Shown here piece by piece: positions 5,181 to 47,606 of a stretch of DNA of 64,000 bases. Every line of letters starts with the position of its first letter. The stretch's first letter is position 1. The notes beneath the pieces are model-generated. The model was not told where the DNA came from, did not search any database, and worked only from the letters and a program-made list of their open reading frames with translations. This stretch comes from Lama guanicoe (taxonomy: Eukaryota). The stretch covers positions 2,629,026-2,693,025 of the forward strand of contig MU053933.1 of NCBI GenBank assembly GCA_013239625.1. The letters run 5' to 3'. Both the position numbers and the translations under genes were made by a program.

Positions 5181-6121
5181 GTTCGAGCACAGATGTTAAG
5201 GAAAACTGCGGTCTGGACGGCGCGCCCCCCGCGGACGGCAGCGCCCCGGGGCCGGGCGAGGGTGCCCCGCTCTCCAACGGGGGCGGCGGGGGCGGCGGGG
5301 GCGGCGGCAGGAAGCGGCCCCTGGAGGAGGGCAGCAACGGCCACGCCAAGTTCCGCCTGAAGAAGCGGAGGAGGGCGCCGGGGCCGGCGCTGCCCAAGAA
5401 CGCTCTGATGCAGCTCAACGAGATCAAGCCCGGCCTGCAGTACACGCTGCTGTCGCAGACGGGGCCCGTGCACGCGCCCCTGTTCGTCATGTCCGTCGAG
5501 GTCAATGGGCAGGTGTTCGAGGGCTCCGGCCCCACCAAGAAGAAGGCCAAGCTGCACGCGGCCGAGAAGGCGCTGCGGTCCTTTGTGCAGTTCCCCAACG
5601 CCTCCGAGGCCCACCTGGCCATGGGCCGGACCCTGTCTGCCAACACGGACTTCACGTCCGACCAGGCCGACTTCCCCGACGCCCTCTTCAACGGCTTCGA
5701 GACCCCAGACAGGTCGGACGCGCCCTTCTACCTGGGCTCCAACGGCGACGACTCCTTCAGCTCCAGCGGGGACCTCAGCCTGTCCGCGTCCCCCGTGCCC
5801 GCCGGCCTGGCCCAGCCCCTGCTGCCCATACCCCCGCCCTTCCCGCCCCCGAGCGGGAAGAACCCCGTGATGATCTTGAACGAGCTGCGCCCGGGACTGA
5901 AGTACGACTTCCTGTCGGAGAGCGGGGAGAGCCACGCCAAGAACTTTGTCATGTCCGTGGTGGTGGACGGTCAGTTCTTCGAGGGCTCGGGGAGGAACAA
6001 AAAGCTGGCCAAGGCCCGGGCCGCGCAGTCTGCCCTGGCGACTGTCTTTAACTTGCACTTGGACCAGACCCCGTCTCGCCAGCCCATCCCCAGCGAGGGC
6101 CTTCAGTTACACTTACCACAG
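5181..6121 (+). CDS. ADARB1: ADARB1 exon 2: N-terminal basic region/NLS, dsRBD1 and dsRBD2
   Basis: Acceptor ccgcag|GT TCG AGC ACA GAT GTT AAG. Encodes [25 protein letters not shown]...[13 protein letters not shown] and [13 protein letters not shown]...[13 protein letters not shown]. Donor CAG|gtgagg at 6122. Confidence 0.98.
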
Positions 6122-9380: not shown

Positions 9381-9495
9381 GTGTTAGCCGACGCCGTGGC
9401 CCGCCTGGTTCTGGATAAGTTTGGGGACCTGACGGACAACTTCTCCTCCCCTCACGCGCGCAGGAAAGTCCTTGCTGGAATCGTCATGACGACAG
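9381..9495 (+). CDS. ADARB1: ADARB1 exon 3 (VLADAVARLVLDKF...VLAGIVMTTG), start of deaminase domain
   Basis: cctcag| acceptor, ACAG|gtaact donor, 115 nt, phase-consistent. Confidence 0.97.
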
Positions 9496-11314: not shown

Positions 11315-11483
11315 GCACGGACGTCAAGGATGCCAAGGTGATAAGTGTCTCCACGGGGACGAAGTGTGTTAACGGCGAGTACATGAGCGACCGGGGCCTG
11401 GCGCTGAACGACTGCCACGCGGAGATCATATCGCGGAGGGCCCTGCTTCGGTTTCTCTACACGCAGCTGGAGCTTTACTTAAA
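11315..11483 (+). CDS. ADARB1: ADARB1 exon 4 with the catalytic CHAE motif
   Basis: tttccag| acceptor; TDVKDAKVISVSTGTKC...LNDCHAEIISRR...ELYL; donor AA|gtaagt; 169 nt. Confidence 0.98.
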
Positions 11484-12179: not shown

Positions 12180-12328
12180 TAACAAAGATGATCAAAAAAG
12201 ATCCATCTTTCAGAGGTCGGAGCGCGGAGGCTTCAGGCTGAAGGACAGCGTCCAGTTCCACCTGTACATCAGCACCTCCCCCTGCGGCGACGCCCGGATC
12301 TTCTCGCCGCACGAGCCGCTTCTCGAAG
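12180..12328 (+). CDS. ADARB1: ADARB1 exon 5 with the Zn ligand in STSPCGDARIF
   Basis: cctttcag|T AAC AAA GAT; donor GAAG|gtgggc; 149 nt. Confidence 0.97.
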
Positions 12329-13348: not shown

Positions 13349-13517
13349 AACCAGCAGACAGACATCCGAATCGGAAAGCCAGAGGGCAGCTACGGACAAA
13401 GATAGAGTCCGGCGAGGGGACGATCCCGGTCCGCTCGAACGCGGGCATCCAGACGTGGGACGGGGTGCTGCAGGGGGAGAGGCTGCTCACCATGTCCTGC
13501 AGTGACAAGATGGCCCG
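13349..13517 (+). CDS. ADARB1: ADARB1 exon 6 with the base-flipping loop (KIESGEGT) and Zn ligand MSCSDK
   Basis: tcttgcag|AA CCA GCA GAC; donor CG|gtaagg; 169 nt. Confidence 0.97.
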
Positions 13518-19844: not shown

Positions 19845-20026
19845 GTGGAACGTGGTGGGCGTCCAGGGCTCCTTGCTCAGCGTCTTCGTGGAGCCGATCT
19901 ACTTGTCCAGCATCATCCTGGGCAGCCTGTACCATGGGGACCACCTCTCCAGGGCCATGTACCAGCGCATCTCCAACATAGAAGACCTGCCCCCCCTCTA
20001 CACCCTCAACAAGCCTCTGCTCAGCG
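19845..20026 (+). CDS. ADARB1: ADARB1 exon 7 ([11 protein letters not shown]...LNKPLLS-G) ending in a GC donor
   Basis: ccccag|G TGG AAC; only the junction AGC G|gcaagt keeps frame with exon 8; 182 nt. Confidence 0.95.
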
Positions 20027-20491
20027 GCAAGTATCTCCGTGGCCTGTGTCCTCTCCCCACGGACCTGGTTTGCGGCGTGGAAGTCTTAGGAGCACAGTTC
20101 TGGGCGGGGGCAGCTGCCCTGTGGCGGGCGCTGGCCGTTCTGAAGGGCAGAGGCAATGGGTCATTTAAGGGAGTCCCTCGGGGTTACTGTCTCTTGCTGA
20201 CTGAAAACCTTGCCGTTTACGGGGAAATTACAGCCCAGGTCCTGCACCTCCGTGCGGCCCGTTCACCCATCCTTACGTCTCAGCCGTAGAGGCTCACAGA
20301 TGCCAGCCATGAGGGTTACGCAGGCATCGGCCGCCCTCGCTTAAGCTGGGCTGGGCCTCGCGGGACAGGCGCCCACGGCGGTGAGCGGGCCGCCCGGAGG
20401 AGGCCGGTGCTGCAGCGCGTGCCGGGACAAGCGGGCGACCACCCCCAACTCCGTGCCCTGTGTTACCGGTTGTTTGTTGTTTTTCTTCTAG

Positions 20492-20584
20492 AGTGTCAGA
20501 GGCTAGCAGTAAAGTGAGCAAGCGCTTTTGAATTCAAGGGTCCTAAGCTCTCAGTTCGCCCTTATTTAAAAGGACACAGTTAAG
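20492..20584 (+). other. ADARB1: 93-nt stop-containing cassette exon in intron 7 (probable orthologue of human ADAR2 exon 7a)
   Basis: Strong acceptor ttgtttgttgtttttcttctag| and donor AAG|gtattt give exactly 93 nt; in-frame TGA at 20515-20517. Confidence 0.8.
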
Positions 20585-20673
20585 GTATTTTTATCCTTTT
20601 GAAAATATCGCTTTACTTACTTTTTTTAAGCTCAGAACTAAACCCCTAACCCTAAACTAGAATGCCTCTTTCG

Positions 20674-20676
<3 letters not shown>

Positions 20677-20706
<30 letters not shown>
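20677..20706. repeat. (TG)n microsatellite
   Basis: About 15 TG units. Confidence 0.95.
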
Positions 20707-20710
<4 letters not shown>

Positions 20711-22804
20711 GTTCTGTGGTGCTCGCTACTGGCACATTTTTAACTGGAGGAAAGCAGTGTGGAATTTTATTTGAAAGCATGTCTCTTAAACCCACAAATT
20801 CTGCCAGAACCGAGAAAAACAAAGGTTGTTTTGGGGCAAATCTTACAGCTCTCTAACCTTATCTGTTATCTTTTAAGAAAAAAAAAATAGACTGATAAAA
20901 CGCGATGGCGTGTAAGTTGAAGCTGTAGCGCACATCCGTTGGCGTTCTGCTGGTAGACGTGAAGCAAGTGCCTTCTGGTGTGTGTTGGTGTATGAATTCC
21001 TCATGAGTCAGAAAGTAATCTTCCCTGTTTAGTCTCTGGTCTGTGTTTGGAGGCAGACTGCCCTGTTTCATTTCAGCTGTCACTTGTCTTTTATGTTCAT
21101 AGACACTGGAACGTCGTGTGGAGTCCGTGGCACGTGGGCGGTGCTCAGGAAGAGCTGTTGGCAGGTGCCTGGTTGAGCGGTGCCGAGCATTGTTGCCTCT
21201 GTCACCATGATCTGAAAAGACAGGGTCGTTTTGCTGGAAGCGTGTTCTGAGGTGCTGGGAGGAGGGCTCACTGACAGAGGTCAGGTGTGTGCTTCCCACG
21301 TCGTGTGCGTGAGGTGCATCCGTGTCTGTACGAACACACGGACAATACTGCTTCGGTGCTGCACCATGCAGATTTGTTAAAAACATGAAGTTATAAATAG
21401 CAAAAGAGTCTGCTCTTCCGTCTTCCTGCCTGACATCACTTCTGATCCCCGAAGTGGGACGCTCAGCCCTTGCGGTCGGGCCCCCTGCCGCGGGCCTGGC
21501 TTGGAGCTCGCCTCATCGGCAGCCCCGTGCAGCTTCTTCACCTGCCCGGGATGGGCTGGGCCGGGTGCCGGCACGGCCCTCCCAGACCAGTGGGGAGAGT
21601 CCTGTGAAACTCAGGGACAGCCTCAGGTCTCAGGGAGCAAGTGTTTCTCAAATGCTGAGCCAGGGGACAAGGTCCCTGGCCTCAAAGTCTATTTCAGAAT
21701 GCAAACTGTTTGAAATGGCTCACTTCGGATAAATGCTTTATTTGGAACCAGTGGTGTTTTGTTGTCCCTTTGAGAGAGCTCACATCGGCACTGCAGGGAG
21801 CTGGGAGAAGACGCCTTAGGGTGGGGGAGCGAGGCCTGAGAGGGAGGGCAGCAGGATGCCCCGCAGAGCAGCAGCGAGGTCCGGCCTCCCGGGGAATCCA
21901 GCTCACAGGCAGAACGACGACAGGTGCCTCCCAGAGGAAAGATTTGGTCCAGAGAAATCTGGAGGGGGTGTCGCTGTCATAACGGTTTGGGAGGGCCCAC
22001 TGCCCTGTGCAGGGCCCCACGGTAAAGCCGTCAGAACTCTCTCTCACAGCGAGGTCCCACAGGGAGTGAGTGACTGGTCCAGGGTGGACCCAGCATCCTG
22101 GGGCCCCTCTGGTCCTCTTGCAGTGCAGACGTGTGCGTGTAACCAGCCACGCAGGTTGTTGCTCTTTGTCCACCTCTCAGTTTACCGCGGGCCGCTCCCA
22201 TGCTGGGGCAGAGTGGTGTGTAACAGCAGCGAGAGAGCTTTGCGTCCTCGGGGAGCGACGAGAATGGGCCACGACGTGCTGCGGAGGATGGCGCGGAGGG
22301 CAGCTGGTTTGCCTGGAAACCAGAGCAGACAAGACAGACGTTCATGAACGATGTAGCGATGGGCTGTTCTTGCAAATGCCGACAAGGTTAAAACGAGAAG
22401 GATTTCACTTGCGTTTCAGCATAGAAAGTAAACTCCCAGGAGGGACCTGCCGGTGGCAGCGGTGCCGCGTGAGCCCCGCCTCGGACACTCAGGTGCGGCT
22501 CTTCCCGGGGACTTGGAAGCAGAGCCTCGGCGCCCTCGCACTCCTCCTTTTCCGTTAAGTTTCAGATCCGACACCTGCGAGTCTCAGAATAGTTCTGCGT
22601 CTCGTTCACTCCGTTGGCCCTTGAGTCTGAGTTTCTCGACTGGCCGGTGTGCTGTCAGGCACCCCGAGAGATCTCAAGAGGTAGGACCAAGGTGCTTGAC
22701 TGTCCCGGGGCTGTGGGGACAGCCAGGCTGCCCCGGCTCACGGGGTCAGACTCCTCTCAGTGCTGGCTCTACTGCCAACACCGTCACAAAACAGTAACAG
22801 GCAG

Positions 22805-25800
22805 GGAGAGATCAGGATGTGGGAGGAGATGGTGTGGAGCTCACCTCCCGCCACGGACACATCAAAAATCCATCCGCCTGTGGGAAGATTCTCATGGAGA
22901 GCCAGCCGGACGCTGACACGGGACTCCTGCACAGCCAGGGCGAGGCTGCGAGGAAGGTACCCACGGAATCGGCAGAATGGGAAGAAAAGCACCGGGGCAG
23001 GGCCTGCACTCACGGGAGGGGGCTCCCAGGAAGGGGGAGGTCGCTTCCCGGGAAAGGGGAGGGCACAGGGGCGGACCTGCCCTGGGAGACAGCGGGTGGA
23101 GCCGCAGGCTGTGTCCGCTGTGCAGGAGGCAAGGCTGGCTGGCCGCTGGGAGAGCCGGGGGACAGACAGAAGGTGGGAGAAGCCTGGACTAAACTCTTGA
23201 GGAGGACACGGTGCTGGCTGAGCCCACCCAGATGGAGAGAGGTCTGCCCAATGCGCTGGCCCTGCTCGCTCCACGCCACACCTTGGCACTGGACCCAGGG
23301 CGGCCAAGATCGGGGAAGAGACTCCATGTAGGGACGCAGAGGCGACTCAGAGGCCTGGGGTGGGGCCCAGGCAGGGTGATGCGGCCGCTGTTGGAGCTCA
23401 CCCAAGCAGTGCCCCAAAGCAGCCCAGACTTCTGACGGCAGCGCGGCCACCTGGACTCCCACGACGGCCTCGCCAGGCACCCCAGCCCAGGCTGAGCGAG
23501 GGCTCCAGCCCCACCAGCTCCACGCACGTCACAGCACTAGGTCATGGGCGGCCACGCAGTGGAAAGAGGAGACCGAGGGCTGCACCTGAGCGGAGCCGCA
23601 GACGCCCACACAGGCGGCGCTCTGGACCTCTGTGAGTGCACGAGCCCCTCTGCTTCAGCCGTCCCCTCCTTCGGGGCAGAGACCCCAGTGTGAAGAGCAG
23701 AAAAAACACACGTAAAGGGAACAGATACTGACCGGTGTATATAAAATAGACAAACAAGTTCACACTGTATAGCACAGAGAAATATATTCAATATCTTACA
23801 GTAGCTTATGGTGAAAAAGAACATGAAAATGAACATATGTATATTCACGTATGACTGAAGCGCTGTGCTGTACACCAGGAATTGACACAACATTGTAAAC
23901 TGGCTATAACTCAGTAAAAAAATAAATAAGGGAACACAGCCAGCTTGAGCACATTTTTCAACCACAATGGTATGAAACTAGAATAAAAACGGGTAAAGAA
24001 CAAACACATAGAGACTAAACAACAAGCTACTAAAAAGCCAGTGGGTCAACAATGAAACCAAGGAGGAAATCAGAAAATACCTCGAGACAAATGAAAGTGG
24101 AAACACAACTTTCCAAAATACGTGGGATGTTCCAAAAGCAGCTCAAAGAGGGAAGTTCACAGCAATACAGGCCTTCCTCAAGAAACAAAAAAATCTCAAA
24201 GAAACAACCTAACCTACCATTTAAGAAGATTAGGAAAAGAAGAACAAAGCCCCAGGTCAGCAGAAGGAAGGAAATAATAAAGATCGAAGAGGAAGTAAAT
24301 AAAATAGAGGTTAAAAAATAAATAGGAAAGACCAGCAAAACCAAGAGCTGGTCTTTTGTACAGAAGAAAGAAAAAAGATAAACCTTCAGCCAGGCTCACC
24401 AAGAAGAAGAGAGAGAGGCCTTAAATAAACAACATAAGAAACGAAAGAGGAGCACTAATAACCAATACCACAGAGATACAAACGATCATAAGAGAACACT
24501 GAGAACAGTTACATGCCATCAAACTGGACAACCTAGAAGAAGTGGACAAATTTCTAGAAATGTACAGCCTGCCAAGACTGTCAAGAAGAAACAGACAATT
24601 TGAACAAGACCAATCACTAGAAGTGAAATTGATTTGTAATTAAAAACAAAAACAAAAACAAAAACTCCTAGCAAACAGAAGTCCAGGACCAGATGGCTTC
24701 ACGGGGAATTCTACAAAATGTATAAAGAAGAATTTATACCAATCCTTCTCAAACTATTCAAAAAAGTTGAAGAGGGTGGAATACGCCCAAATTTATTCTA
24801 CAAGGCCACTGTTACCCTGATACCAAAACCAGACAAAGAAACTACAAAAAAGAATATTAAGGACCAATATCTTTGATGAAAATAGATGCAAAAATCATTA
24901 ATGAAATACTAGCAAGCTGGACTCAACAATACATAACAAGGATCATATACTGTGGTCAAGTTAGATTCATCCCAGGGTCACAAGGATGACACAACATATG
25001 AAAATCAATCATTGTGATACACCACATTAACAGAAATAAAGATGGAAGCCATATAGTCATTTCAATAAACACAGAAAAAGAATTTGATAAAATTCAATAT
25101 CCATTTATGATTAAAAAAAATCTCTCATTAAAGTGGGTGTAGAGGGAACATACCTCAACATAATAAAGGCCATTTACAACAAACCCACAGCCAGCATAGT
25201 ACTCACTGGTGAAAAACTGAACGCCTTCCTGCTAAATTCAGAAACAAGACAAGGACGCCCACTCTCACCACTCCTATTTAACATAGTATTGGAAGTCGTA
25301 GCCACAGCAATCAGACAAGCAAAAGAAATAAAAGGCATCCAACGTGGAAGGAATGAGGTAAAACTGCCACTGTCTGTAGATGCCACAACACTCTATACAG
25401 GGAGTCCTACAGTCTCCTCCCAAATACTGTCAGATAATAAGTGAGCTCAGCAAGGCTGCAGGACACGTGATCACCACACAGAAACCTGCTGCATTGTACA
25501 CTACAATGAACATCAGAGAGAGAAAGTAAAAAAAAAAAAATTCTGTTTAAAATTGCATCAAACAGAATAAAATACTTAGTAATAAACGTAACCAAAGAGT
25601 TAAAAGACCTAAACTCTGAAAACTATAAAACACTGATGAAGGAAATTGAAGGTGATACAAAAATATAGGATATCCTGTGTCCTTGGATTGGAAGAATTAA
25701 TATTGTTAAAATGGCCATAGCGCTCAAAGCAGTCTGCAGATTTAATGCAATCCCTACCACTATTCATGCCGTTTTTCACAGAACTAGAACAAATAGTCCT

Positions 25801-29934: not shown

Positions 29935-32900
29935 GCTCACATGCGTACTGCCAAAATGGGTTAGTTTGCATTTTCTAGGATTGTACAAGAATCATGAGAT
30001 GTGTGCTTTTTTGTCTAGCGTATTCCATCCAGCATGATGTCATTATTTTGCGATTCCTCCATGTTTGCTGTCTGTCGGTGGCTCGTTAGCCCTTGTCATC
30101 GCTGCGTCACGTTCCGCTGTGGGATCAGCCAGTCTGTTCATCCAGCAGCTGTTGACGGTATCTGGCAGTTTCCAGTCTTCTACTGCCTCAGGCGAAGCTG
30201 CCGAGAACGCCCGTGTGCAAGCACCTCTCCTGTAAACGCCGGGGGGTGGGAAGGCTGGCTCATGGCTTGGGTGTGCGTTGAGCTTTTTAAACACTGCCAC
30301 ACTTTGCCTAGGCGGTTGTACCATTTTCCCCTCCCACCAGCACTGCCGGAGCGAGCCAGGTCCTTCCCACCCCGGCCAGCACTTAGCGTGGGCAGCGGTT
30401 TGGGACATGCTGATGGCTGTGGTGTCACACTGGTTCTAGCTTGTACTTCCCGCGTGACTGACGGACGTGAGCTTCTCTTCGTGTGCTGGTGCCATCTGTG
30501 TGACTTCTCCGATACATTGTTCAAAACTTTTCACGTTTCTTACTACTGAGTTTTGAGAGCGACTTACATACTCCGGATACAAGTCCTTTATCAGACATGA
30601 TTAGAAACGTTCGTCTTTCTGCTCTCTCAGCAGGGTCTTTCAGAGACCAGATAATATTTTGATATGGATAAAATTTCTGATAAAATTCTGTTTATCAGTT
30701 TCTCTCTGTTGGATCATGCTTTTGATATTGTAGCCAAGAAATGTCTGCCTGAGTCTGTGTCACAAAGATTTCTCCCTATGTTGTGTCCTTAGAAATTTTA
30801 GTTTCAGTTTTTGCATTTCGGACTAGACTCCATTTTAAGTGAAAGTTTGTATAGACGTGAGGTGTGAAGCTCATTTTGTAACATATAAGATAATTGTTCC
30901 AGCACCATTTGTTGAAAAGTGCCACCTTTACCGAACTGCCTTTGCACCTTTGTCAAAAATCAGGGCTTTTTCAGTTTATATTTTAAAAGACCAGCTTGCA
31001 TGTGTATGTTTAGGTCTGGTTTTGGACGCTGGTGTTTTCCATTCATCTCTTGTCTGTCTTGAAGCCAGTATCACGTCATGATAACTGTAGTTTCATTGTA
31101 AGTTTTGAGATCAGGTAGGGTTAATCCTCCAGCTCTGTACTTCTTCAAAGTTGTCTTGGCCACTTAGGTCCTTTTTGCATCTTCATAACAATTTTATAAT
31201 CAGCTTACCGGTTTGTTCATAGAAGCTGGCTTGGATTCGGCTGAGATTGTGCTGAACATGCAGGTCAGCCGGGGGAGAACCAGCATCTCGGGGTTTTGAG
31301 TGTTCAGGTGACGGAGGCCGAGCGTCTCTGCGTTTACTCGGGTCTTGCGCTTCCTCACGGGCCGGTGCTCCCTGGTTGACAGCACCCCCACCTTACACGT
31401 CTGGTCAGATTTAGCTCCAGGTGCTTCCTAGTTTTGATGCTCTTTTGAAGGCTGTACTCCAGCTTCCAGTCGTTCACTGCACGGACACCGAGAGAGCGCT
31501 TACAGCAGCTTTTCTGCAGATTGGACTGAAGCTGCTCTCTGTGCGAGCCTGTGGCTCATGTTTTCCCTCTTCCTGCACATCTGGGCGCCCTTGACTTCTC
31601 TCTCCTTCCTGCGCCTGGGCGGGCCTGCAGCGCAGGGCCGGGCCGACTCGGTCAGAGCCGCCGGCCTGTCCCGTGTGCGGCCTCGGGGCAGGCACGCAGC
31701 CTCACCCGGAAGTATGACGCAGCCTGCGCACTTTTCCTTTTCATGAGTTTAAGGCAATTTCCTTCTAGTCCTAACTTGCTAAAGGGTTTAAGTCAGGAAT
31801 TAATGTTGGGTTTTGCCAGATGCTTTTTTTCTACTTTATTGAGATGATCATTTGTGGAGTTGTTGTTTTTTTTTTTAAGTTAATGTGACATTGATTGATT
31901 TCTTTAAATATTAAACCAACCTTGCCTTCCTAGAGCAACTCTAACAGTCATATGTATTACTCTTTTTATACGTTGTTGGATTCAGTTTGCTAAACTTTTG
32001 TTTTTATGGTGTTTTTATGAATTTTTGCTTCTGTAGTACACTGGTCTGTGTGGATGTTGGTCTCTAGTTTTGGGGAGGTTTTCAAAAAATTTCTTTGTCA
32101 GGTTTTGGCATCAGGATAATGCTGGCTTCATAAAATGAGCTGAGAATCATTTCTTCCTCTTCTGTTTTCCAGAGAAATTTGTTTAGATTTGATATCAGAT
32201 TTTTCCATCCGAGCCTAAAGGATTTTTTGTGAGAAAGTATCTACAAATTCAGTTTCTATAATAGATACAGGGCTATTCATGTGATCTATTTGTTCTTGAG
32301 TGAGCTTTGATGATTTGTGTCTTTTAGGGAACTTCTCTGTTTCATCTAAGTTGTTGAATTTATTGGCAAAAAAGTGTTCATGACATTCATGTACTGTCCT
32401 CTTCGTGTCTGTGGGGGCTGCAGTGGTAGCTCCTCTTTAATTTCCTGTATCATGATTTGTGTCTTCTCTTTTTCCCCTATCAGTCTAGCTAGAAGTTTAT
32501 CAATTTTACTGATTTTTTTCTCTTAAGGACCAACTTTTAGTTTCATTGATTTTTTTTCTGCTGTTTTCTATTTTTCTCAACGATTTCTGCTCTAATCTTT
32601 ATTATTCCCTTTTTTCTGCTTTATGTTTTGATTGCTTTTCTTTTTCTAGTCTTTAAGGTGCTAGTTGAGGTCATTGTTTAGAGACCTTTCTTTACTGATT
32701 TCACAGCATTTCACAAATGTTGATACGTTGTGCTGTTATTTTCATTCATTTTGAAATACTTTGTCTCATGGGTTATTTAGAAATCTGCTATTTAGGTTCA
32801 AAATACTAGGACATTTTTACAGAGATCTTTCTGTGCTAAATTAGTTTCAATTTGTGACTTGAGTCCTTTTAAATTTATTGAGAATTGATTTAAGGACCAG

Positions 32901-36548: not shown

Positions 36549-36727
36549 GCATCAGCAACGCGGAGGCACGGCAGCCCGGGAAGGCACCCAACTTCAGTGT
36601 CAACTGGACTGTGGGCGACGCGGCCATCGAGGTCATCAACGCCACCACGGGGAAGGACGAGCTGGGCCGCGCGTCTCGCCTGTGTAAGCACGCGTTGTAC
36701 TGTCGCTGGATGCGTGTGCACGGCAAG
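36549..36727 (+). CDS. ADARB1: ADARB1 exon 8 (ISNAEARQPGKAPNFSVNW...RWMRVHGK)
   Basis: tgttccag|GC ATC AGC; donor AAG|gtactg; 179 nt. Confidence 0.97.
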
Positions 36728-37583: not shown

Positions 37584-37763
37584 GTGCCCCCCAGCCTACT
37601 GCGCGCCAAGGTCACTAAGCCCAGCGTGTACCACGAGTCCAAGCTGGTCGCCGCGGAGTACCAGGCGGCCAAGGCCTGCCTGTTCAGGGCCTTCCTCAAG
37701 GCCGGGCTGGGCGCCTGGGTGGAGAAGCCCACGGAGCAGGACCAGTTCTCACTCACACCCTGA
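37584..37763 (+). CDS. ADARB1: ADARB1 exon 9, C-terminus (VPPSLLRAK...[17 protein letters not shown])
   Basis: ttttcacag|GTG CCC; TGA at 37761-37763; C-terminal 17 residues match human ADAR2. Confidence 0.97.
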
Positions 37764-40162: not shown

Positions 40163-40208
40163 NNNNNNNNNNNNNNNNNNNNNNNNNNNNNNNNNNNNNN
40201 NNNNNNNN
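40163..40208. other. Assembly gap (46 N) within the 3'UTR
   Basis: Run of N. Confidence 1.
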
Positions 40209-45814: not shown

Positions 45815-47606
45815 AAAGGAAGGATGGGTGAAGGAGAATAAAAGATGCTGGAAGGCAGGAAGTAGAATGTGGGGGGTGGGTGGTGGAAGGTTGGCAGTGG
45901 ATTGTGGAGAGTTGGTGAAGGACGGTTGAAGTGAGTGGTGGACGATGGATGGTAGAAAGTGAAAGGAAATGGTAGAAGGTGGGAAGTGGATAATGGATGA
46001 TGATGGCCACTGGTAAATGGTTAAGAATGGTGGAAGGTAGGTGGTGGATGGAATGTAACAGGTACATGGTGGATGGTGTGTGGTGGAAAGTGAATGGAAG
46101 ATGGTTGATGGGGGATGGTGTAAGATAAATGGTGTTTGATGGATGGTGGATGGTGGATATTTGATGAAGAATGGTGGCAGGTGGATTCTGATGGTTGAAG
46201 GTGGAAAGTGCTAGATGGTGGAAGCTATGTGATGGATGGTGAAATGTGGGTTTTGGAAGGTGGAATGTGAACAATGCAAGGTTGAAAGTTGCAGGTGAGA
46301 TGTGGAGGGCGGAGGGTTGAAAGTGGATGCTCAAGGTGAATGCTAGCAGGTGGACAGGAGATAATGGGTGGCATATAGGGAACGTTGAATGGTGAGTGGT
46401 GTATAGTGGGTAATGGTTGGTAAAACGTGAGTGGTGGAAGGCGGATGGTGGGTGGTGGATGGAAGGTGAAGAATAAATGATGGAGGGAGGAAGGTGAATG
46501 GTGGATGGTAGGCAATAGAAGGTGGGTGGTGGCAAGTGGAAGGTTGAAGGTGGATGGGGGATTGTGGATGATGGACAGAGAAAGATGGTAGGTGGGTAGT
46601 AAAAATGGATGGGCTTAGTGATGGTGTAATAAGGGTGATATGGATGGTGGAGTGTAGGTGGTGGAAAATGAAAAATGGGGAATGGAATGAAAAAGGTGGG
46701 TGTTAAATGGTGGAAGGTGGACAATAAAAGTGGAAAGAGGATGGTGGAAGGTGAAAAATAATAGGTAGTGATGGAAGGTTAAATGATAAATCATAGCTGG
46801 TAGACGCTGAGTTGTGGATGGTGGAATGTGTGTGGTGGATGTTGGTCAGTGGAAAGTTGAAGGAAAAAGTTAGATGGATTGTGACTGTAGATGGTGGAAG
46901 GTGGATGGTGGATGAAGAATGGTGGAAGAAGGATGGTGGATAGGAGAATGTAAATGTTGGAAAATGGTACATAGCACTGAAGTCTGGATAGTGAATGGTA
47001 GATGTTGGATGGTTGAAGAAAGATGGTGGAAGTTGGATGGTAAAAGGAGAATGCAGTTGGTGAATGGTGTAAGGTGGATGATATGGTGGAAGGTAGATAA
47101 TGGATGGTAGATGGTAGAAAGTTGGATGGTGGATGGTGGAGGATGGAAGGTGGATGGTGGATGTGGGTATGTTGAGGGTAGAAAGCGAAAAGCGGGTGGA
47201 GGAATGTGGATGGTAGATGGTAGATTGTGGAAGGTGGAATCAGATGGTGGATGATGGATATTGGATGGTGAATGATGATTGATGGTTGATAAACAATGGT
47301 GAAAAGTAAATGTGGATGGTGGTTGCTGGAGTGTGGAGAGTGGATGGTAGATAGTGGAAATTAGGTGGATGGTCAAATGTAGGTGTTGGAAGATGGATGG
47401 TGGATGTGAATGGTGAAATGTGGAAACAGTATGGTAGAAGGTGAAAACTTGAGGGTAGATGGTGGTTCATGGATTGTGCATGGTGGAATGTGAGTGGTGG
47501 AAGATGAAATGCAGGTGGTAAAAGATGGAAGGTGGGAAGTGGAGGTTGAAGTTAGAAGGTGTACGTTAGATGGTGGGTCATGAAAGGCAGAAGGTAAAAG
47601 TAGAAG
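45815..47606. repeat. About 1.8-kb degenerate (TGGA/TGG/TGGAAGG)n low-complexity tract, very C-poor on the + strand
   Basis: Recurrent atggtggaaggtggatggtgg words throughout. Confidence 0.92.

Follow-up and report, generated by a model that had tools for sequence, protein, structure and literature searches.

A probable camelid orthologue of the ADAR2 poison exon 7a in intron 7 of ADARB1

Introduction

Does the camelid ADARB1 gene, which encodes ADAR2, carry in its seventh intron the poison exon described for its human counterpart, and if so, is there anything new in its being there? The question is raised by a 93-nt segment bounded by AG and GT in 64,000 nt of Lama guanicoe DNA (the whole stretch analysed here, called the window, to which all coordinates refer), which a preliminary description made from the sequence alone had put forward as a hidden NMD-inducing exon. 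The human exon described by Agranat, Sperling and Sperling in 2010 (RNA Biol 7:253, PMID 20215858) is said to lie in intron 7, to hold stops in all three frames, to be highly conserved in mammals, and to be included most in skeletal muscle, heart and testis. Human exon 7a is reportedly 93 nt long, NMD-inducing and tissue-specific, as the preliminary description stated.

In print, a passage of the review PMC4381283, citing Agranat 2010, states that inclusion of ADAR2 exon 7a leads to in-frame premature stops that induce NMD in a tissue-specific manner. The same label is also used for something else, since "exon 7a" in passages of PMC4693238 and PMC12925331 denotes an exon of ADAR1. The available parts of PMC9226085 and PMC4030101 hold no passage on ADAR2 exon 7a, those of PMC8657411 and PMC3941116 give Agranat 2010 as a reference but say nothing about what the exon is like, and a literature search on ADAR2 intron 7 found no statement of a 93-nt exon. 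The exon numbers used below are our own; only coding exons are counted, and the primate Alu exon is left out.

Results

An intact ADARB1 gene surrounds the segment

ADARB1 (ADAR2) is present in the window as an intact forward-strand gene, whose nine coding exons encode 703 amino acids with 91.5% identity to human ADAR2 (P0073). In the exon model, coding exons 1-6 lie at 1792-1819, 5181-6121, 9381-9495, 11315-11483, 12180-12328 and 13349-13517. Exon 7 (19845-20026, 182 nt), which encodes part of the deaminase domain and ends in phase 1, yields a peptide equivalent to residues 225-284 of the 403-residue deaminase chain in PDB 1ZY7 (chain A). It is separated by an intron of 16.5 kb from exon 8 (36549-36727, 179 nt), which is followed by the last coding exon, exon 9, running up to the normal stop (37584-37763). 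Compared with this model, the Vicugna pacos protein XP_072826433.1 shows 0 mismatches and 15 gap positions, and the Camelus dromedarius protein XP_031316771.1 shows 6 mismatches, which marks the gene as that of a camelid. On the 3′ side of the last coding exon there is a run of 46 Ns (40163-40208) and, downstream of ADARB1, a long, purine-rich, degenerate 7-bp tandem array (45850-47300) with a GC skew of up to 0.84.

The segment has the stop geometry of a poison exon

The candidate poison exon (20492-20584, forward strand, 93 nt) starts 465 nt into intron 7. As had been claimed for it, it follows a TAG acceptor, is closed by a GT donor and has two exons still to come, exon 8 starting at 36549; and when joined to exon 7 it reads ECQRLAVK followed by a stop at 20515, and another stop in the same frame comes at 20581. 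Stops are present in all three of its frames, two in the frame of exon 7 and three and two in the others. The preliminary description had predicted an NMD target, and the distances agree with this: from the end of the first stop it is 67 nt to the next junction and 246 nt to the final one, both more than the 50-55 nt by which a stop precedes a downstream junction in AS-NMD. Any protein made from such a transcript is predicted to contain both dsRNA-binding domains and to run as far as human position 582, keeping H394, E396, C451 and C516, while the C-terminal 119 residues of the deaminase domain, including K662, K672, W687 and K690, would be missing. We take the first four to be catalytic and zinc residues and the latter four to be inositol-hexakisphosphate contacts, and the loss of these contacts implies that any truncated ADAR2 would be inactive.

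A donor-like site overlaps the first stop (20514-20519, forward strand) and fits the consensus at 7 of 9 positions. Judged from its sequence only, this internal donor at 20513 would define a 22-nt mini-exon (20492-20513), the shifted frame of which stops in exon 8, 40 nt before the last junction and thus near the limit for NMD escape. A Pfam scan of six intron peptides returned nothing above cut-off.

Splice signals alone do not single out the segment

The acceptor of the segment is preceded by a T-rich tract within an AG-free zone of about 58 nt (20434-20491, forward strand), compared with 19-29 nt for the eight constitutive acceptors, and has 14 T in 20 positions. The long U-rich tract of the preliminary description is thus indeed T-rich, with 14 T, 3 C and 5 G in 20467-20488, but it is not strongly pyrimidine-rich, and no YTNAY branch consensus is present within 20420-20491. 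The donor (20584) fits the consensus at 7 of 9 positions, as do several constitutive ADARB1 donors. The segment had also been placed in an AT-rich island. This holds locally, GC content being 0.32-0.48 in 100-nt windows starting at 20450-20850 against 0.58-0.80 just upstream; it is no rarity, however, as 87 of 329 windows across intron 7 lie at or below 0.40.

By simple consensus-type scores rather than a MaxEnt model, 31 of the 607 YAG acceptors that intron 7 contains, and 45 of its 980 GT donors, score at least as well as those of the segment, and 21 acceptor/donor pairs spaced 50-250 nt apart qualify, the segment included. With this many equally scoring pairs, the splice signals alone are within chance and therefore no proof of an exon. 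Downstream of the cassette donor, neither TGCATG nor ACTAAY was found. Between this donor and a TG tract further on lies a cluster of CTAAAC/CTAAC motifs, three in 20 nt (20638-20657), which we take to resemble QKI or branch-point-like elements.

Rodent protein models splice exon 7 to the orthologous sequence

Proteins were collected by searching with exon 7 (the best 120 of 174 matches), then by two later searches with 98 and 98 proteins and from the members of ten further clusters, none of which yielded another ECQ tail. This gave 351 proteins in all, 348 of them with the exon 7 anchor. Among these 348, 234 run on normally into exon 8, and most of the others are intron read-through. In 7 of the 348, the residues directly after exon 7 form a tail that matches the segment, and all seven are rodent gene models, six from squirrels and one from a deer mouse. 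In the latter (Peromyscus leucopus XP_028730149.1, isoform X5), the tail reads ECQWLTVE, with 5 of 8 residues identical, and then stops at the same codon as the camelid. In Urocitellus parryii (XP_077651560.1, isoform X7) the tail is ECQRLTVKRTGAFEFKGLNF, compared with ECQRLAVK-stop-ASAFEFKGPKL in the window, and tails of this type were found in five further squirrel models from the Urocitellus cluster (Marmota XP_046294928.1 and XP_071471074.1, Ictidomys XP_040143067.1, Sciurus XP_047419236.1 and Callospermophilus XP_076723813.1). All six squirrel tails are 20 residues long and are identical to the reading of the segment at 11-13 of 20 residues. These rodent tails are computed annotations, and they cover the acceptor side of the segment up to the stop rather than its 3′ third or the donor at 20584.

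The match is specific to this one acceptor. When the Urocitellus tail was compared with the readings that follow each of 1242 AG sites in intron 7, the site at 20492 was separated from it by a minimum of 8 base changes in 63 nt, while the next best required 25 and the mean was 35.4 (SD 3.3). The first 63 nt of the segment are at least 8-11 changes away from the squirrel tails, and its first 27 nt are 3 changes away from the deer mouse tail. Elsewhere in the 64-kb window, the best six-frame match reached 7 of 19 residues, compared with 12 of 19 at the segment. Given this unique fit of 20492, the segment is therefore orthologous to the sequence that the rodent models splice to exon 7, and the same AG is used. 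Because the six squirrels are one family, this amounts to two independent lineages (Sciuridae and Cricetidae), not seven.

The two lineages differ in where translation ends. In the squirrels, an arginine replaces the first stop, at which both the camelid and the deer mouse terminate, and the stop comes 12 codons later, at codon 21; the camelid codon matching this squirrel stop is a serine codon, one change away from a stop. On this comparison of sequences, selection appears to keep termination rather than the peptide, the stop turnover in squirrels appearing as one event.

The ECQ tail is absent from the other 341 of the 348 anchored proteins, including all primate, bat, horse, ruminant and camelid RefSeq proteins retrieved. 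NMD isoforms are mostly filed as non-coding, and if this is so here, the absence of the tail from these proteins is to be expected, although it also limits the evidence. Two Camelus dromedarius models (KAB1283680.1 and KAB1283679.1) do use the 20492 acceptor, though from a GT 4 nt past the GC donor of exon 7, and they read another frame to a stop; they may be prediction artefacts. A metagenome scan with the exon 7 peptide yielded 58 loci, none of them mammal-like (best 85% amino acid identity), and no blastn match of the segment to these loci was better than E 0.25. For the vertebrate ADAR2 locus among them (L001), alignment of its intron to the segment gave a score of 28 against a shuffle mean of 25.5, with 45 of 200 shuffles scoring as high. 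In two ADAR2 models of Nannospalax galili (P0077 and P0089), exons 7 and 8 are separated by about 60 additional residues, inserted in frame and unrelated to the segment.

Intron 7 begins with a GC donor

The frame into exon 8 is preserved only from a GC position, so that the 5′ splice site of intron 7 (20027-20032, forward strand) is of the GC type; a GT dinucleotide lies 4 nt beyond it. This GC-AG intron had been overlooked in the preliminary description. Among the loci of the metagenome scan, the one vertebrate ADAR2 locus L001 (1780-1789; 85% amino acid identity) has the same GC donor, and its first ten intron bases are identical. The read-through peptide GKY, encoded past the exon 7 donor, is found in 47 of 348 proteins, a count that cannot separate GC from GT. 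The GT four bases downstream misleads two gene models (P0004 and P0128), and three GNN forms (P0058, P0059 and P0083) are probably further cases. A weak GC donor, a near and optional acceptor and a constitutive acceptor 16.5 kb off would together form a plausible setting for regulated choice.

Editing-driven feedback finds no support at the segment

Self-editing of ADAR2 reportedly creates a 47-nt insert through an AA-to-AI acceptor in intron 1 (Rueter 1999). Like inclusion of the segment, this is a splicing event that switches ADAR2 off; it differs in that it occurs in another intron and depends on editing, whereas the segment has neither structure above shuffle nor an inverted partner. Fold z-scores for three spans around the segment were 0.05, 1.65 and -1.25, none of them above shuffles, and no inverted partner of the segment was found in the 64-kb window. 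Editing-driven feedback at the segment is thus without support, there being no fold above shuffles and no inverted partner.

Discussion

Taken together, these data suggest that ADAR2 exon 7a, as a conserved poison cassette exon, has its camelid orthologue in the segment at 20492-20584, a reading to which we give a probability of roughly 0.85. The proposal of a conserved NMD-inducing exon 7a made in the preliminary description gains support from the stop geometry, from rodent models that use the orthologous acceptor, and from the review PMC4381283. The human exon and the segment share the gene, the intron (in our numbering), the in-frame premature stops and the geometry for NMD, and the rodent isoforms with the ECQ tail have the same exon 7 junction into the homologous segment; the comparison with human runs through camelid sequence and rodent proteins. 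Agreement extends to the stops in all three frames and the mammalian conservation that the 2010 abstract is said to have described. That the segment is the published exon, with the same length of 93 nt, is most likely, on the basis of the review PMC4381283 and of the length reported for the human exon. What most likely lies here is a known exon in one more mammal, conserved and not new. The preliminary description had presented its occurrence in a non-primate as news. This is probably wrong, given that the 2010 abstract reportedly already had high conservation in mammals.

If the segment is a cassette exon of this kind, the following course of events can be proposed. Full-length ADAR2 would be the default product, made by splicing the GC donor of exon 7 to exon 8 across the 16.5-kb intron. 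In a fraction of transcripts, as the rodent models suggest, the same GC donor would instead pick the near acceptor at 20492, and exon 8 would then be reached from the donor at 20584. Translation would end after eight codons of the cassette, with the two remaining junctions 67 and 246 nt downstream, and the mRNA containing exon 7a would be degraded by NMD, as is reported for human and seems probable for the camelid. The net effect would be a dial at the level of splicing, which lowers ADAR2 in those tissues that include the exon.

Two other readings of the segment were weighed against this one. The acceptor at 20492 might open an alternative last exon, ended by intronic polyadenylation, in which case NMD would be escaped and the product would be a truncated ADAR2 that has its dsRNA-binding domains intact and ends in a short tail. 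It is in keeping with this that all seven rodent isoforms carry a protein-coding annotation, that proteins cannot show whether the transcript continues to exon 8, and that variant poly(A) hexamers occur at 20875-20894 and 21392. There is no AATAAA or ATTAAA within 20492-23920, however, the segment ends after 93 nt in a reasonable donor, and exon 7a is called NMD-inducing in a passage of the review PMC4381283, which makes an alternative last exon very unlikely. Alternatively, the segment might be conserved for another reason, as an intronic element that aids the weak GC donor or as a DNA enhancer, and be spliced in as occasional noise. That 20 other pseudo-exon pairs match its splice signals, that the tail is present in only 7 of 348 proteins, and that the GC donor upstream may need help all fit such a view. 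Set against it are the use of exactly the orthologous AG by the rodent models, the in-frame stop kept in both rodent lineages and the camelid despite loss of the first stop in squirrels, and the tissue-specific, NMD-coupled inclusion reported for human in PMC4381283; we consider this second reading highly improbable.

The remaining alternative concerns the regulation of the exon and is compatible with its being exon 7a. A (TG)15 microsatellite (20677-20706, forward strand) starts 92 nt after the cassette donor, just as the preliminary description, which put it forward as a candidate TDP-43/CELF site, had it at about 90 nt downstream, and is one of only two tracts with at least 8 TG units in the 64 kb. 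UG repeats are the motif of TDP-43, which, bound to a (UG)15 tract adjoining the exon in this way, could repress it, making the segment a TDP-43 cryptic exon. TDP-43 cryptic exons are typically not conserved and are absent from annotation, whereas the segment is conserved to rodents and annotated there; and UG tracts in a downstream position would equally serve activators, among them CELF, or RBM24 in muscle. The literature found on ADARB1 and TDP-43 reports, in the parts available, no control of an ADARB1 exon by TDP-43; one such study (10.64898/2026.06.22.730622) concerns, in the part available, ADAR2 acting on TDP-43. Moreover, it is on loss of another protein, MATR3, that an ADARB1 exon bearing a premature termination codon (PTC) has been reported as included (10.1101/2023.12.07.570685). 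Repression by TDP-43 is, on balance, unlikely.

According to passages of that preprint (bioRxiv 10.1101/2023.12.07.570685), knockdown of MATR3 leads to inclusion of the PTC-bearing human ADARB1 exon and lowers ADARB1 mRNA, and MATR3 rescues this. In addition, "ADAR1B" appears in a passage on Matrin3-repressed, PTB-independent exons (Coelho 2015, PMC4365034). The MATR3-repressed exon and the segment have in common the gene, the PTC and lower ADARB1 mRNA on inclusion, and the former may or may not be exon 7a. MATR3 and PTBP1 are further described, in a part of 10.1101/297853, as repressing splicing in and around LINEs. Intron 7 holds two L1 ORF2 remnants, at 24640-24873 (forward strand, E 7e-16) and 32085-32240 (reverse strand, E about 1e-3; both against PDB L1 ORF2p), which lie 4 and 11.5 kb downstream of the cassette; being opposed but sharing only 30 nt at 90%, they form no long duplex. 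For TDP-43, the (TG)15 tract is the sole observation in favour, and MATR3 is the better-documented lead, a lead and not a result.

A bolder combination, to which we give a low probability, would have exon 7a as the MATR3-repressed exon, the UG tract as adding control by TDP-43, and the minor form made with the donor at 20513 as escaping NMD. Were it true, loss of either of these ALS-linked proteins (MATR3 or TDP-43) would switch ADAR2 off through exon 7a, and the form with the 22-nt mini-exon would be an RNA-binding, catalytically dead ADAR2.

The dosage of ADAR2 sets recoding edits such as GluA2 Q/R, and it is because of this that a conserved NMD switch in ADAR2 matters. While such a switch has been in print since 2010, the present analysis makes small additions: the probable camelid orthologue, traces at the protein level in two rodent lineages between which the stop codon has turned over, the upstream GC donor, and a link to MATR3 that can be tested. 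Should MATR3 indeed act on exon 7a, an antisense oligonucleotide that blocks the exon could raise ADAR2 where it is lost.
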